A DNA stretch of 64,000 nt from a virus (Duplodnaviria; Caudoviricetes), in the IMG/VR virus record IMGVR_UViG_3300020331_000002; one strand, given 5' to 3'. Positions 1 through 11,241 of the stretch are shown in pieces. The position numbers were made by a program, and so were the translations under genes. The notes below the pieces were generated by a model. That model did no database searches. It was not told where the DNA came from and worked only from the letters and a program-made list of their open reading frames with translations. The first letter of the stretch is position 1. Every line of letters begins with the position of its first letter.

Positions 1-230
1 AATCAATCATTCGAAATAATTAATAAGAGTTAAATTATCGATAGATATTATAGACGAAGCAAGTTCCTTGCGAAGTCTACTAATAGCTAGCGAGTAACGG
101 CAACGTAGTTGCAGGAACATTACTATCGTTAATTATTATAAATGATTCATCATATTCTAGGTTGAATATCAGTAAAAATGTCTAGGCGGATCGGATAAAA
201 CATAGGACGGGATTAATAGGAATTCAGGCA
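1..230. other. AT-rich non-coding region with several short perfect hairpins (possible origin or structured element; truncated by the window edge)
   Basis: No ORF. Hairpins: TAGAC-GAA-GCAAG-TTC-CTTGC-GAA-GTCTA (51-79), GCAAC-GTA-GTTGC (100-112), ATATTC-N6-GAATAT (152-169). Confidence 0.45.
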
Positions 231-232
231 AT

Positions 233-262
233 AAAAAAGGGCCAATGCTATGACCCTTCTTT
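233..262. terminator. Probable bidirectional intrinsic terminator
   Basis: AAAAAAGGG-N12-CCCTTCTTT at the end of the minus-strand 248-421 ORF. Confidence 0.55.
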
Positions 263-421
263 GTAGTACTCTTTGAGCTTTTTAACTAATTGCTGACGTT
301 CTCGGGATGACATCATCCAACATGTTTCGTATCCAAAGCCGCCTTGTCCATAAATAGCCAAGTACTGGATTTCATCAGTTAATTTATCTTGATTCTTCTC
401 AAGACCCCGAATCATGGCCAT
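248..421 (-). CDS. 57-aa ORF missed by the ORF track; probable C-terminal (GT-type) part of the tail/baseplate assembly chaperone
   Basis: Translates MAMIRGLEKNQDKLTDEIQYLAIYGQGGFGYETCWMMSSRERQQLVKKLKEYYKEGS*. TAATG overlap with the upstream gene. The -1 frame is open back to a T7 run at 457-463. Confidence 0.75.
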   Translation of the reverse strand: MAMIRGLEKNQDKLTDEIQYLAIYGQGGFGYETCWMMSSRERQQLVKKLKEYYKEGS

Positions 422-1305
422 TACCTGTTGTGGGTCGCCTGATCCGAGGAGCGCGTAAAAAAACTCATTTGATCGAAGTTAACATCAATAATGTGTTCGT
501 GCTGACAGTTCTGGCATTTCGTATCCAATTTACTCTGCACGCCGTGATTATTCATGTCGTCTACCTTTTCCTTTATCTTCGCTGACGATTCCCTGTCAAT
601 TTCCATAAAGAACTCAGTAATAAACTGCGGTTCAGTAACTACGTTGCCCGCAAGAGACACACTCGCAATAGAGCTCATAAGTATGTCGCGGTTCAGTGTA
701 GACATTTCTTTGTACATTTTACTGAATACGGCTAAGCGCTCATCGTCACTTACACCGGAATCAGGAGACAACGCACGTAGACTCTTACTTTCCTTGTAGC
801 CGATATCAAGTATTTTCTTGTATTGACTAAAGTCGTACGGGTGCAACATCACTTCCAGATCACCATCCAGTTCTACAACATTAAAGCCATCGCTAAAACG
901 TCTAACGTTAGACAGCACCATATCTAAATCAAGTGTTTTCTTTTGTACATGGCCGCATTTAGGACACGTTTCGTCTATGTCATGCTCTTTGCCGTACGAG
1001 TTTCGACGGATTTCAGTCATCAACAATCTAATGTCAATGTGTAAAAGTTTAGTTGGGTCACTAATTGTAGGGCAGCAACTCTTAATAACCGAGACAATGC
1101 TTTCGCCATTTAGTAAGCCGTCCGGGTTGTTTAGTAGAGTTTCGTCTGAACCTGTCATGGGTTTAACACCCACCTCAAGTTTCTCGTTATCTGCTGTGAT
1201 GAAGCCTTCAGGATAAGCACCGATGTCAGTGCCTAAAAGACGCACCCAGGATTTAGGCTTCCTGAACGCCCCTGCCAAAGGGTTGTTGGCTGTCATTTGT
1301 GTCAT
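421..1305 (-). CDS. gp26: T4 gp26-like baseplate hub / tail assembly chaperone
   Basis: N-terminal NPL..FRKPK motif, PMTGSDE, two CxxC pairs (CPKC, CQNC); divergent from the tape-measure gene. Confidence 0.75.
   Translation of the reverse strand: MTQMTANNPLAGAFRKPKSWVRLLGTDIGAYPEGFITADNEKLEVGVKPMTGSDETLLNNPDGLLNGESIVSVIKSCCPTISDPTKLLHIDIRLLMTEIRRNSYGKEHDIDETCPKCGHVQKKTLDLDMVLSNVRRFSDGFNVVELDGDLEVMLHPYDFSQYKKILDIGYKESKSLRALSPDSGVSDDERLAVFSKMYKEMSTLNRDILMSSIASVSLAGNVVTEPQFITEFFMEIDRESSAKIKEKVDDMNNHGVQSKLDTKCQNCQHEHIIDVNFDQMSFFTRSSDQATHNR
457..463 (-). promoter_or_regulatory. Candidate -1 ribosomal frameshift slippery heptamer U UUU UUU
   Basis: Minus strand reads AGT TTT TTT ACG; a -1 slip gives an open frame that joins ORF 248-421. 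Confidence 0.6.
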
Positions 1306-1333
1306 TCTGTTACTCCGTATTAAGATATACGTG

Positions 1334-1340
1334 TATTTAG
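1334..1340 (-). promoter_or_regulatory. Late promoter box CTAAATA
   Basis: Intergenic, about 30 bp upstream of the gp26-like gene; similar to T4 late TATAAATA. Confidence 0.65.
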
Positions 1341-1367
1341 TTAAATTCAGGCAGTGTTTTTAAAGTG

Positions 1368-1374
1368 CTAAATA
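1368..1374 (+). promoter_or_regulatory. Late promoter box CTAAATA
   Basis: 30 bp upstream of the tape-measure gene. Confidence 0.65.
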
Positions 1375-1404
1375 TTCATATAGGATAAGGTTTAGTACGG
1401 AATT

Positions 1405-4212
1405 ATGGAAGAAGTAAGCCCGGTAATTATTACCGATATAGACAGTGTCGCCATAAGAACACTAGCTCAAGAAGAGACGTTAAAGTCCCTAATAAAACTC
1501 GTTCAGAAATCCTACAACTTAGACAAAACACACGGTAAAAAAGTAGAAGATCAGTTAAAACGCATTGCCGACAAACTTGATGACCCAACTGGCATGGGAG
1601 AGATAGGCGATGTTGTTGATTCCATAGACGGACTTGACTTTGACGAGTTAAAACAAGAGCTAGCCGATATAGGCGAAACACTCGAAGACAATTACAAAGA
1701 ACAAGTTAAAGAAAACAAGCGCCGACCGTCTACAGGACCGGGCCCTGCCAACTCGCCAACGAACAGTCGTGAACCTGATTTATCCGGGAAATTAGACACC
1801 ATGTTAGGTGGCTTTATAGGCCGTATGGATATGGGTTTCGGCGGTATAATGGCCAAAACAGGCCAAATACTAAGCGCGTTTTCATTAGCTGCACTAATAG
1901 GTAACTTGGCAAACCTAGCCGAGAACTCGCGATCAGCTGGCGCACTCATACAAAGTTTTGGCTCATCTGCAGAAATAGCAGGTAACTTTGTTTCCAACAC
2001 TGCTGATAACATCCTTCGTTTTGGTATGAATGTCGAGGACTTAAATGCCGTTTATAATGAACATTCTATCGCGTTAAACGCGTACCAACGAGCAACTGGT
2101 AGAAGCTTCGCCCAAACGGTTTCGGGTATGGCTGATTTCGGTGATATTGTCGGTGTAACTTCGAGACAAATGCTTGAGTATAGCGCAAGTGAATTCTCCC
2201 GTCAACGTCTTTTAGGGCAAATAGACCAACTCAATCAAAGTCAAATGCAGAACTTAGCACGCCGCGCCATAGAAAATATGACGGAATATAGCGCTAGGTT
2301 GGGTATCGGGATTGAAGAGATAGACAAAGCAGTGAACGGGTTAATGGATGCGCCTGATACTCGTTTTATTATGAGCTCTTTAAGCCTAGCTGGGCAAGAA
2401 GCTGTTAAAGAAATGACAATGGCTTTTGCTGATGCGCCCGAGGTTTCTAAAACATTAAGAGACCAACTTGCTAATTTACAACTTGGCCGTCCAATCGATC
2501 AGGAGCTCGTAAGAGGCCTAGCGTCAAGCGGTTTAGGTGATGTTATACCAACGCTAACTGAAGAACTTAATAGCGTAATGACAGGTGACACGTCTGCCAT
2601 TGAGCGCCTGCGCAACACATTGGCGGTTCGTTTCCAGCAAATGACTGACGACCAACGAAAAGCAACTCTAGCAGTAGCACAGAGCGTCGGTGGAACTTAT
2701 TTGCAGTTTGCGAATGATGCGCTTTCTTTGACTGAAGATATGCGCAGTAGCATGACTGATGAACAGCGAGCCGCTGAACGCAGAATACGAAACCAAGCCG
2801 CGTTTATACGTGAGTTCAACAATCGCTTGACTACAATGTTCCAAGGCTTGCTTACTCAAGTACTAAACTATTTCGTTGGTTTTGATGATGTAAACAAGCT
2901 GTTTAATAAGGAAGGCGAATTCACTGAAGAAGCTGTCAACAAAATGAGTAAATTCTTCAGTGATGTACGTAGTTTTATAGACGGGTTTGTGTCTGGCATG
3001 GGCACCGTATTTGACGTCCTAAAAGTGATAGGATCCGGTCTTTTATGGGTGGCTGACACCATTGGTTCTGTTATGTCTGTATTTGGTGTAGAGACCGAAA
3101 GCGCTGCCAATACGCTCGGATACGTAGCTGGTTTATTAGTAGGCGGCATAATGTTCATCGCTACTCCGGCTAGGTTGTTATTCAGCGCGTTTAAAACGGT
3201 AGGTCAAATACTAATGGCTTTCGATATTGTTGGGCTGTTTAAGACACTACCTTCGATGGTACGCGTGTTTTCCGGTGGTATCATAAAGGCAACGACATCA
3301 GCTTTCAGCACAATATCGGGTGGATTAGCTCGTCTGTTCACAGTGCTAGGACCGCAAATGTTAAACGGTGTATCCACTTTCTTGAACAAGTCATTATTCT
3401 GGTTAGGTGCAGTTGCGCAACGAGCATTGCCGTGGTTACTGTCTAGAATACCTGCTTTATTTGGTCCAGTGGGTATAGCGATTAGCACACTAATAACCGG
3501 GATAATAGACGGTTATATGAACTCAGATTCTGATACTTTTATCGGAAAAGTAATAGACAGCATCATGAGTCTGCCGCGCACGTTTGCAGGCTGGATCTAT
3601 GACATGGTTGACACTGTGGCCGGCTGGCTTGGGTTTGATTCAACGTCATTTACTAACGCCTTACGTGATATTAACTCGCCACTTGGCATACTGTTTGATT
3701 TGTTGTCGTTTGTCGGACAGCAATTATCGGCTGTGGGTGATTGGGTAGCACAGAAATGGGATGCTGCTAAATCGTGGTTCACCGGCGACGACGATAGCGC
3801 AACCGTAATGAAAGACACTGCTAAGCAAGTCAATAACGATGTAATAGAGCACGCGTCCGGTGTCGCTAAAGACTATGCCAATAATGTTAAACGACAAGCC
3901 CCTAGGATGAACAGCGGCAACATACAACGCGATGCGCAATTAATTAGAAATGCTTCGGTTTCCAACATAGTAAATAACACTAGAACAGGTAATGTTAACA
4001 ATTCTACATTTACCGAAGAATTAATCACAGATAAGGCAAGAGCAGATAAAATAGTAGAAACCATGAATATGGTTCAAGAAAGCACTGACCCGGATACCAC
4101 TGCGTTATTGTTGGAAAAACTAGATCAACTAATATCTGCTCAGACAGAGAATAATAGATATTCTCGTGAAATAAGCTCTAACACAAAGGGCGCAATTAAG
4201 GGAATAGGATAA
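1405..4212 (+). CDS. Tail tape-measure protein / baseplate hub
   Basis: 935 aa, helical, Ala/Gly-rich, with long hydrophobic stretches in the C-terminal half; next to the tail chaperone. Confidence 0.7.
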   Translation: MEEVSPVIITDIDSVAIRTLAQEETLKSLIKLVQKSYNLDKTHGKKVEDQLKRIADKLDDPTGMGEIGDVVDSIDGLDFDELKQELADIGETLEDNYKEQVKENKRRPSTGPGPANSPTNSREPDLSGKLDTMLGGFIGRMDMGFGGIMAKTGQILSAFSLAALIGNLANLAENSRSAGALIQSFGSSAEIAGNFVSNTADNILRFGMNVEDLNAVYNEHSIALNAYQRATGRSFAQTVSGMADFGDIVGVTSRQMLEYSASEFSRQRLLGQIDQLNQSQMQNLARRAIENMTEYSARLGIGIEEIDKAVNGLMDAPDTRFIMSSLSLAGQEAVKEMTMAFADAPEVSKTLRDQLANLQLGRPIDQELVRGLASSGLGDVIPTLTEELNSVMTGDTSAIERLRNTLAVRFQQMTDDQRKATLAVAQSVGGTYLQFANDALSLTEDMRSSMTDEQRAAERRIRNQAAFIREFNNRLTTMFQGLLTQVLNYFVGFDDVNKLFNKEGEFTEEAVNKMSKFFSDVRSFIDGFVSGMGTVFDVLKVIGSGLLWVADTIGSVMSVFGVETESAANTLGYVAGLLVGGIMFIATPARLLFSAFKTVGQILMAFDIVGLFKTLPSMVRVFSGGIIKATTSAFSTISGGLARLFTVLGPQMLNGVSTFLNKSLFWLGAVAQRALPWLLSRIPALFGPVGIAISTLITGIIDGYMNSDSDTFIGKVIDSIMSLPRTFAGWIYDMVDTVAGWLGFDSTSFTNALRDINSPLGILFDLLSFVGQQLSAVGDWVAQKWDAAKSWFTGDDDSATVMKDTAKQVNNDVIEHASGVAKDYANNVKRQAPRMNSGNIQRDAQLIRNASVSNIVNNTRTGNVNNSTFTEELITDKARADKIVETMNMVQESTDPDTTALLLEKLDQLISAQTENNRYSREISSNTKGAIKGIG

Positions 4213-9931: not shown

Positions 9932-10270
9932 ATGCAGCCTTATGTGTATTATGGCTACGGTATTAAACTAGGCGAAGTTACTGAAGAAGAGTTTGACCAA
10001 ATAGAAGATGATGACTTTTTTCAAATTGCTTGGTTTAGTGACGGTTGCCGTGAGCAAGATTCCGGCATTGCATTTATAGACAATGCGTATCACTCACCAT
10101 GGGACGAAGACACTACGGAAAAACCTTCCCTGTCTTATGCTGTTGATACCGGTGATATTGACTCAGCGCGTATGAAGTATTTGCCGGAGTTACAAAAAGT
10201 TCTTGACCATCCGATGGTCAAAAAGTATAATAAGCAGATTAAATTTTACGTTTGTTGTACTGAAGTTTAA
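9932..10270 (+). CDS. Hypothetical acidic protein
   Basis: ORF track 9893-10270; ATG at 9932 preferred; PYVYYGYGIKL start typical of small phage accessory proteins. Confidence 0.75.
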   Translation: MQPYVYYGYGIKLGEVTEEEFDQIEDDDFFQIAWFSDGCREQDSGIAFIDNAYHSPWDEDTTEKPSLSYAVDTGDIDSARMKYLPELQKVLDHPMVKKYNKQIKFYVCCTEV

Positions 10271-10280
10271 CAGTAAATGT

Positions 10281-10351
10281 GGCCCTGATTTGGCATAAGT
10301 AGCCGGTCTCTAAAACCGCGAAAGTGGGTTCGAATCCCGCCAGGGTCACCA
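10281..10351 (+). tRNA. Compact 71-nt tRNA with CUA anticodon (amber suppressor type; Pyl-like size)
   Basis: Acceptor GGCCCTG/CAGGGTC, discriminator A, encoded CCA. T-arm GTGGG-TTCGAAT-CCCGC. Anticodon loop CT-CTA-AA closed by CGGT/ACCG. Short D-arm ATTT-GGCAT-AAGT. Confidence 0.85.
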
Positions 10352-10373
10352 ACCTAGTTTACAAGGATATCTA

Positions 10374-10502
10374 ATGGTAATTCCTGTTGTCAATATTTAT
10401 TGCATCAACTCGCCGTTCATTTGCTCGTTCGGTGGGCTATGCCAATATACAACATCGTCTGGTGGCTGCCATTACCCTGGCCCGTGCAAATTTAAAGTAT
10501 AA
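10374..10502 (+). CDS. 42-aa Cys-rich peptide missed by the ORF track
   Basis: SD AAGGA; MVIPVVNIYCINSPFICSFGGLCQYTTSSGGCHYPGPCKFKV*; fills the gap between the tRNA and the oxygenase. Confidence 0.55.
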   Translation: MVIPVVNIYCINSPFICSFGGLCQYTTSSGGCHYPGPCKFKV

Positions 10503-10517
10503 TTAAGGAGAAACGTC

Positions 10518-10895
10518 ATGCGTTAGAACACTCAAAAACCATCACTTAAAATGTGGCGCTGGGGCAACGATAAGTTCGCCACTGGCTATAGAATATTCAC
10601 TTTATTCCATTCCAAAACACTCGGTATCGACTTGTATCTATTCAGGTATCCCGAGGGCTCATTCATTCCTAAGCATAAAGATCCTAAAACAAACGGACCT
10701 ACTACTCGTATAAACTTAGAACTCCGTAAAGCTCAGCAGGGCGGTGTTTTCAAGTGTAAGCGTAAATGGTCGTTGTTTGATAGATTACACGTCTTTAGAG
10801 CAGATAGAGACTATCACTCTGTGTCTAAAATAGAGAAAGGCTCTCGTTGGGTTTTGTCTTTAGGGATAGCAAACGTGTTCAAGAAACCGAGATAA
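10518..10895 (+). CDS. 2OG-Fe(II) oxygenase-family protein with an in-frame amber codon at codon 3
   Basis: HxD (PKHKD), distal H (DYHSV) and R (GSRWVLS) pattern. SD AAGGAG before ATG 10518, then CGT TAG, in frame with ATG 10551, which has no SD. Confidence 0.75.
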
Positions 10896-10899
10896 TCGT

Positions 10900-11241
10900 C
10901 TATTTATTGGAAGTAATAATCAAGAATAAGCCGAGTGTGATGAATAACATACCGGCTACTTCTTGTATGTTGACTATCCTGTCTTTAAAAATCATTGTTT
11001 GGATAATTATTGCGCATAAGAATGAGCATCCTTGCGCTACGAGCGCAAGGGCTGGGTAACTATAATGTGATGATCCCGTACTGTAAAAATAAGTATATAA
11101 CCCGGTAGCAAGCCAAGTTATCGGAACGCATAAAAGTGATATGTAGAGTGAGTCTTGTAAATTGTTACTTCCTCTACTTATCGCCCATATGTTTGGAATC
11201 TGAACGAGTATTGACGCGCATAATATCGTTAACCATATCAT
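10900..11241 (-). CDS. Four-TM small membrane protein, SMR/DMT (EamA-like) superfamily
   Basis: 113 aa, four hydrophobic segments, C-terminal AGMLFITLGLFLI typical of SMR TM4. Confidence 0.6.
   Translation of the reverse strand: MIWLTILCASILVQIPNIWAISRGSNNLQDSLYISLLCVPITWLATGLYTYFYSTGSSHYSYPALALVAQGCSFLCAIIIQTMIFKDRIVNIQEVAGMLFITLGLFLIITSNK

Follow-up and report, generated by a model that had tools for sequence, protein, structure and literature searches.

Laboratory amber mutants are rescued by CUA tRNA suppressors of the supE/supF type. The gene of release factor 2, prfB, is autoregulated via an early in-frame UGA combined with a +1 frameshift, and in animal mitochondria tRNAs lacking the D arm work together with specialised mitochondrial factors. 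In gut phages, phage-encoded suppressor tRNAs and the reading of TAG as Gln (genetic code 15) have been described (Borges et al., bioRxiv 10.1101/2021.08.26.457843). CUA suppressor tRNAs also occur in standard-code jumbo phages, namely Xanthomonas phage XacN1 (PMC5852040) and Ralstonia phage RsoM2USA (PMC8504454), and the authors of the former study sought read-through past gene ends and reported no identifiable target genes (PMC5852040). The present study deals with a stretch of 64,000 nucleotides (nt) of the virus record IMGVR_UViG_3300020331_000002 (Caudoviricetes), referred to here as the window, in which an earlier note had described a gene for a 2-oxoglutarate (2OG)-Fe(II) oxygenase that is interrupted by TAG at its third codon and lies downstream of a tRNA gene with the anticodon CUA. 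On the basis of a comparison with homologous loci, we consider it likely that the tRNA(CUA) and the oxygenase gene act together as a lock-and-key module, in which the enzyme is obtained by read-through of the UAG.

The start region was found on the sequence as the earlier note had described it, with a Shine-Dalgarno (SD) motif AAGGAG, an ATG, the codon CGT and then TAG in the frame of the oxygenase (Table 1). The internal ATG at 10551 indeed lacks an SD, with no purine-rich run in front of it, and a CUA tRNA gene is located on the same strand at about the distance of 170 nt that had been given (166 nt), with no terminator-like site on the plus strand between the tRNA, an intervening open reading frame (ORF) of 42 codons and the oxygenase gene. 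A gene that is intact except for a lone TAG at codon 3 looks like the result of a fresh nonsense mutation, which the earlier note had kept as its alternative, and an assembly error would look the same. However, the TAG is identical across at least eight independent assemblies of near-identical phages, and contigs from three metatranscriptome runs and one DNA run match positions 10100-11000, in whole or in parts, with zero differences, which excludes a sequencing error. The contigs from RNA libraries are short (161-1619 nt) as opposed to the multi-kb DNA contigs, and their presence in these libraries is not proof of transcription; in total, marine metagenomes and metatranscriptomes of eight studies contain the stretch. 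Since the early stop is also conserved throughout the clade and the catalytic residues are invariant, the idea of a recent, tolerated nonsense mutation is refuted, and we give a broken gene or an assembly error practically no weight.

The comparative set comprised 50 loci from about 35 lineages, located on marine and other metagenome contigs and in the cultured phages XaC1 and nt-1. The homologues, with 50-65% identity, were drawn from viral contigs, metagenomes and GenBank phages, and the lineage counts result from manual curation of the DNA read upstream of the invariant W-x-W-G-N-D motif. All 50 loci of this W-x-W-G-N-D subfamily contain an in-frame stop 1-7 codons after an ATG, which in most of them follows an SD-like purine run, and none of them has a sense codon in this place. 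The stop is TAG in 32 lineages and is found at codon 2 (ATG TAG) in eight of these, at codon 3 in most and up to codon 8 in the rest. In the maximum likelihood tree, all early-stop genes form one clade with a support of 98/96, apart from the outgroup relatives with a G-R-Q-x-x-G-Y motif (Ralstonia RP31, Burkholderia FLC9, Vibrio Vp_R1, Pseudomonas D6 and Phabio), which start normally and are stop-free. Branches in the early-stop clade measure about one change per site or more and protein identity across it is well under 60%, and TAG is still kept. As TAG is only one mutation away from eight other codons, its retention across such a deep divergence implies selection for the stop itself. In 28 of the 32 lineages, the TAG is followed by an A, although the residues encoded there differ (N, K, I, T, S), an indication that selection acts on the nucleotide context; in E. 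coli, suppression is favoured where A follows UAG.

Two cultured phages belong to this clade. In Xanthomonas phage XaC1 (OR258281), the gene begins with ATG AAA TAG and the record starts it at an internal ATG (XaC1_459); in Vibrio phage nt-1 (HQ317393), it begins with ATG TAG and the record contains a truncated coding sequence of 77 amino acids (ORF180). Both public records mis-annotate the N-terminus of the oxygenase, and the adjacent CUA tRNA is unannotated in both. A Q at the TAG position in two database proteins, P0001 among them, was rejected as a true glutamine codon, since the DNA has TAG and the residue comes from the gene caller's TAG=Q translation; on relatives, gene callers allowing TAG=Q predicted exactly the product of 125 amino acids. 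One further copy (L022, ~2496-2545) shows ATG TAG and an adjacent CUA tRNA together with a deletion of 1 nt in the TGGGG run of the W-G motif, which is either a homopolymer assembly error or the mark of a decaying copy.

For 30 of the 32 TAG lineages, the flanking DNA was sufficient to assess the presence of a tRNA. A covariance model built from the window tRNA, ARAGORN at a relaxed threshold and a custom stem-based scanner were used for this purpose; the covariance model picks up all tRNAs regardless of their anticodon, and the anticodons were therefore read separately. The co-occurrence of TAG and tRNA noted in the window extends to the relatives: 28 of these 30 lineages have a co-oriented CUA tRNA within 2 kb, and in 26 of them the distance is no more than 250 nt. 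As a rule, either 19-27 nt separate the end of the tRNA from the ATG, or the tRNA begins at the stop codon of the oxygenase gene or overlaps it. Where the tRNA starts at or inside this stop codon, as observed in L027, L058 and nt-1 (Table 1), cleavage by RNase P would strip the mRNA of a complete stop codon. In three members, the form found in the window is replaced by a canonical cloverleaf tRNA(CUA), which is located 1.9 kb upstream in L019, 20 nt upstream in L078 and 60 kb away in the 344-kb genome G001.

In four loci (L059, L060, L088 and L066/67), the early stop is TAA instead of TAG, and these loci form one clade (support 96/83) nested within the TAG clade. No CUA, UUA or UCA tRNA was found within ±1.5 kb of L059/L060 and L066/67, nor among the 29 tRNA genes in the ~30 kb searched around L088/L091 on a 320-kb contig, and a matching ochre (UUA) tRNA for this clade was rejected on these grounds. 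An internal ATG is present in three of the four members. The protein of L088 is at least 85% identical to that of L058, which has TAG and the CUA tRNA overlapping the stop codon, while L088 lacks such a tRNA and has TAA, an internal ATG and a strong promoter-like site. The TAA clade is consistent with one loss of the tRNA, after which the gene came to be expressed in another way.

Between related loci, 60, 45 and 152 changes fall on codon positions 1, 2 and 3 of the segment from the TAG to the conserved core, and between L020 and L021, 6 of its 33 nt differ, all of them synonymously. Judging by this pattern, the segment evolves as coding sequence under selection at the protein level. Moreover, 17 of the 32 TAG lineages contain no ATG, GTG or TTG between the TAG and the core, so that translation must pass through the TAG. 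These observations bear on the reading in which the SD, the ATG and the following 1-7 codons up to the TAG are a leader mini-ORF, translation restarts at the next start codon (10551 in the window) and the tRNA is unrelated. Such a reading is suggested by the in-frame ATG 24 nt past the TAG in the window, by the corresponding stretch of 15 TAG lineages, which contains an ATG or TTG, by the TAA clade with its internal ATGs and no suppressor tRNA nearby, and by the short form of the XaC1 protein called by database annotators. However, a leader of this kind requires a restart codon in every member, whereas the window has one and the 17 lineages have none, and in nt-1 the next start after the TAG would delete ~34 conserved residues. 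Neither the third-position excess of changes directly after the TAG nor the maintenance of TAG in 32 lineages and its linkage to a CUA tRNA is explained by a leader. The residue aligned to the ATG at 10551 is Leu in most relatives. Because of its internal ATG, reinitiation is plausible for the window phage's own gene, but it cannot explain the family, and overall we regard it as unlikely. Two other ways around the TAG were rejected: ribosome hopping needs matching take-off and landing codons, which L016 alone possesses (AAA TAG AAA) and the window does not, and for a non-canonical start directly after the TAG the next codon is too variable (AAC, AAA, ACC, ATT, AGC, GTA), with none of them common to the family.

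The tRNA itself is unusual. In the window, its acceptor stem has 7 bp (GGCCCUG with CAGGGUC, including a G2-U71 wobble) and is followed by the discriminator A73 and an encoded CCA, its T arm is canonical with a 5-bp stem and the 7-nt loop TTCGAAT, and its 7-nt anticodon loop CUCUAAA has U33, a purine at position 37 and the CUA at 34-36. With 15 nt and no 4-bp D stem, the D region is reduced, and a C-C mismatch is found at the top of the anticodon stem. Because of these two features, ARAGORN with default settings reports no tRNA anywhere in the window and Rfam gives a sub-threshold match to the tRNA clan (16.8 bits), so that the tRNA announced by the earlier note does exist, with the qualification that a relaxed ARAGORN threshold is needed to call it. 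A pyrrolysine system was rejected, as no match to PylS (TIGR02367) was obtained across the complete phage genome and the 'Pyl' label assigned by ARAGORN reflects the anticodon alone.

Altogether, 26 distinct homologous tRNAs with a reduced D region were compared, with stem counts taken from an anchor-based parse, MAFFT having misaligned the 5' halves. Pairing is almost perfect in their acceptor (7 bp), T (5 bp) and inner anticodon (3 bp) stems, with 3-6 pair types at most stem positions, i.e. with many compensatory changes, while almost no sequence is common to the tRNAs apart from the T loop, the anticodon loop and the ACCA, in which 24 of the 26 terminate. The anticodon loop YUCUAAA is the most conserved block. 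A GG dinucleotide in the D region is retained by most copies, and base pairing between the 3' part of this region and the variable region lengthens the anticodon helix in most of them, an extension that the window copy lacks. The tRNA of nt-1 is deviant, with an ambiguous register of its acceptor and T stems. The compensatory stem changes together with the constant YUCUAAA in 26 divergent copies are strong evidence that the element is a conserved structured RNA whose anticodon matters. It might instead be a processing signal for RNase P/Z or a stability signal and not a decoder, with the UAG being read at a low level by near-cognate host tRNAs or throttling expression; a non-canonical shape missed by standard detectors, and a location right next to the mRNA, either 20 nt upstream of it or across the stop codon, would suit this role. 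But a processing signal would not need the very loop that is best conserved, canonical tRNA(CUA) genes take the place of the reduced form in the three members mentioned, and the nested clade without the tRNA has also lost the TAG, which makes this explanation quite improbable.

The genome from which the window originates is that of a marine jumbo phage (310,672 bp, complete with direct terminal repeats, 43.6% G+C). Across the whole genome, TAG serves as an ordinary terminator and ends 27 of 259 long frames (~10%), compared with 167 for TAA and 65 for TGA. Junctions of ORFs in the same frame are not enriched across TAG (12, compared with 14 across TGA and 38 across TAA). A scan of the 310.7 kb for an SD and ATG with a stop within 10 codons and a subsequent open frame of at least 80 codons yielded exactly one TAG case, the oxygenase gene, whereas TAA gave two weak hits and TGA none; the arrangement at the oxygenase gene exceeds chance. 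The genome encodes 23 ordinary tRNA genes, which are ~170 kb away from the oxygenase module and none of which has the anticodon CUA. A search of the genome revealed neither a release factor gene nor a PTH2-like homologue as a possible second client. The statement that the genome otherwise uses the standard code was thus correct. A genome-wide reassignment of TAG (code 15), with the oxygenase as one of many recoded genes, might be suspected from the gene callers' choice of TAG=Q on short contigs carrying the gene. Such a genome would have many TAG-interrupted genes and few TAG terminators, whereas here a single gene has an early TAG, TAG closes frames regularly, junctions across it are no more common than across the other stops and no release factor is encoded, so that reassignment is hardly conceivable.

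The AlphaFold2 model of the 125-residue protein is all-beta and folds as a double-stranded beta-helix (mean predicted local distance difference test score, pLDDT, of 84.8). Residues 1-10 form a disordered tail with a pLDDT below 50, so that any residue inserted at the UAG would be tolerated. H53-x-D55 and H100, which make up an HxD...H iron triad, and R110-x-x-x-S114, which supplies a basic residue for 2OG, do not vary among 14 homologues. The match to Pfam PF13640 is weak (19.2 bits compared with a cut-off of 27), the best family match is phrog_13746 with unassigned function, and Atlas neighbours are labelled 2OG-Fe(II) oxygenase. Foldseek gives generic matches to cupins, PHD2, P4H and AspH at a template modelling (TM) score of ~0.5, and the fold searches contain no clue to the substrate beyond generic cupin/2OG matches. 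According to fold and motif, the protein is predicted to be a minimal oxygenase of the 2OG-Fe(II) type. In a profile search, 745 representatives of the wider family were found, and since only six of them have an E-value below 1e-30, the amber-bearing subfamily is a small branch of a large phage family.

In the proposed mechanism, one promoter probably drives the CUA tRNA, the 42-codon ORF and the oxygenase gene together. The tRNA with its reduced D region would be processed and charged, and ribosomes loading at AAGGAG and the ATG at 10518 would meet the UAG as their third codon, where the phage tRNA(CUA) and host release factor 1 (RF1) would compete. If the tRNA wins, one residue would be inserted in the disordered N-terminal tail and the 125-residue enzyme produced; if RF1 wins, fMet-Arg alone would be released. 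As a consequence of this competition, the output of enzyme would report the amount of active suppressor tRNA in the infected cell. The early position of the stop may be favoured because very short nascent chains are terminated inefficiently and because any residue would be tolerated in the tail.

Several points weigh against this mechanism. TAG ends about one tenth of the phage's long ORFs, and an efficient suppressor would extend those proteins. The tRNA has no normal D stem, has the C-C mismatch and stays below the default thresholds of ARAGORN and Rfam, and we know of no bacterial system that uses a tRNA reduced in this way. The ATG at 10551 could give a functional protein of 114 amino acids by termination and reinitiation without any suppression. 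One TAG lineage, L061 on a 4-kb contig, has no tRNA in the 2.4 kb available, and in the tree this lineage is the sister of the TAA clade. In the TAA clade, the enzyme is apparently expressible without the tRNA, which shows reinitiation or internal initiation to be a viable alternative. For L066/67, neither read-through by a CUA tRNA nor reinitiation accounts for expression: this locus (~1480-1560) reads ATG AAC TAA GGC, without a canonical start before the core and without a suppressor tRNA in 3.3 kb. Finally, the association of TAG with the tRNA (Fisher p = 0.002) overstates independence, because the change to TAA is a single evolutionary event. Taken together, the interpretation of the earlier note, a single-gene switch consisting of an oxygenase gene read through UAG and the phage's own CUA tRNA, largely holds and is strongly supported by the deep conservation of TAG, the linked tRNA, the selection after the TAG and the lineages without a further start codon. 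Its claim that the enzyme is made only when the tRNA is active may not apply to the window phage, where ATG 10551 could serve for reinitiation, and the link to tRNA integrity or to the stage of infection that it proposed would be a further possibility.

The oxygenase gene is usually located inside tRNA clusters in the homologous loci. A remote homologue that starts normally occurs in Pseudomonas phage D6 (OQ363659, L030, locus 1-3128); two genes upstream of it is an RlmN-like gene, with the annotation rRNA large subunit methyltransferase N, and on its other side is a gene for an RtcB RNA ligase. Residence in tRNA clusters and the neighbourhood in D6 hint at an RNA-related role of the wider family, such as repair or modification. 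They also fit, without testing it, a closed feedback circuit in which the oxygenase made by read-through hydroxylates the anticodon loop of the suppressor, RF1 or a ribosomal protein and thereby tunes or latches suppression. Eukaryotic 2OG oxygenases are linked to termination and to tRNA wobble chemistry, which is a lead only, and we consider such a circuit a rather doubtful extension of the module. If it existed, the reduced-D CUA tRNAs would be a previously unrecognised class of tRNAs on bacterial ribosomes.

The features of the module and its surroundings are listed in Table 1. Promoter-like sites are no more numerous in this region than expected from shuffled sequence, and the site upstream of the tRNA is a consensus match only. 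The 42-codon ORF differs from its counterpart in L013 at 13 synonymous and 3 non-synonymous codons and on this basis is a real coding gene under purifying selection. It is confined to close relatives of the window phage, contains five Cys residues, ends with ...GPCKFKV and has no match in Pfam or PHROG; the Cys-rich peptide could be a substrate of the oxygenase. On the other side, the oxygenase gene faces a convergent hydrophobic ORF of 113 amino acids, which has a promoter-like site of its own and matches EamA/TMEM234-like families weakly (E 0.004-0.01). The module is flanked by an ORF of 394 amino acids and by a protein of 2012 amino acids rich in short repeats. They are a putative capsid protein and a putative fibre, respectively; if this is right, the module is situated in an apparent structural-gene region away from the main tRNA cluster of the phage.

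Table 1. Features of the oxygenase module in the window and in homologous loci (L numbers, locus coordinates).
Feature	Position	Strand	Remarks
Putative capsid ORF, 394 aa	8530-9714	+	flanks the module
Sigma-70-like promoter TTGACC-17-TATAAT	10203-10231	+	11/12 consensus matches; precedes the tRNA by ~50 nt; transcription of the tRNA/small ORF/oxygenase unit may start here
tRNA, anticodon CUA, 71 nt	10281-10351	+	166 nt before ATG 10518
Cys-rich small ORF, 42 codons	10374-10502	+	own SD AAGGA; between tRNA and oxygenase
Shine-Dalgarno motif AAGGAG	10505-10510	+	7 nt before ATG 10518
Full oxygenase frame	10518-10895	+	ATG, CGT, TAG (codon 3), 122 sense codons, TAA 10893-10895; 125 residues if UAG is decoded
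In-frame amber TAG	10524-10526	+	next codon AAC; following base A at 10527
Internal in-frame ATG	10551-10553	+	33 nt (11 codons) after ATG 10518, 24 nt after TAG; no SD-like purine run; candidate reinitiation site, 114-aa form
Hydrophobic ORF, 113 aa	10900-11241	-	converges on the oxygenase gene
Promoter-like site of the 113-aa ORF	11299-11271		
Putative fibre, 2012 aa	12109-18147	+	rich in short repeats; flanks the module
XaC1 (L028), tRNA	1399-1468		
XaC1 (L028), oxygenase	1489-1845		
nt-1 (L029), oxygenase	1495-1836		
nt-1 (L029), tRNA	1837-1905		starts at or inside the oxygenase stop codon
L027, tRNA	2820-2888		starts at or inside the oxygenase stop codon
L058, tRNA	1844-1911		starts at or inside the oxygenase stop codon

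Standard-code jumbo phages often carry CUA suppressor tRNAs, and the targets of these tRNAs were left as an explicit open question in the XacN1 study, for which a concrete conserved client can now be named. As the module is present in two cultured phage-host pairs, XaC1 with Xanthomonas and nt-1 with Vibrio natriegens, it is directly testable. In addition, a whole lineage of functional-looking tRNAs evades the standard detectors. Sequence comparison thus points to a natural amber gate on a single gene outside genome-wide recoding, which may be an early step of recoding or a compact regulatory device useful to synthetic biology.

In the literature search, nothing was found on a single gene that is amber-gated and paired with its own tRNA, and the described systems each share some features with the module. 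As in the supE/supF system, a UAG within a gene would be rescued by a CUA tRNA, here likewise in the favourable UAG-A context; however, the arrangement is natural and conserved, and the tRNA belongs to a distinct reduced-D-arm lineage instead of being a point mutant of a normal isoacceptor. With the D-arm-lacking mitochondrial tRNAs, it shares an intact minihelix of acceptor and T arm and a short loop in place of the D stem, as well as, in most relatives and not in the window copy, the extended anticodon helix, whereas the setting is a bacterial cell and most copies have the GG in the D region. In prfB, too, an early in-frame stop makes expression depend on termination as opposed to alternative decoding, but there the gene product itself reads the stop and the ribosome shifts by +1, while here the frame would remain unchanged and a dedicated tRNA would decode the stop. 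XacN1 and RsoM2USA, too, are jumbo phages that infect Proteobacteria, carry CUA tRNAs and otherwise use standard coding; in contrast to them, a specific client is named here, whose TAG is located at the start of the gene and thus outside a search of gene ends, and the homologue search found no oxygenase homologue in XacN1. The code-15 phages come close in that a phage CUA tRNA is proposed to read in-frame TAG within a standard-code host and to act as a post-transcriptional gate. However, they contain tens to hundreds of TAGs in late and lysis genes and are depleted of TAG as a terminator, whereas the phage described here has one gene with one TAG, which in this family lies at codons 2-8, a tRNA that is physically linked to it, and a genome in which TAG continues to end about a tenth of the genes.

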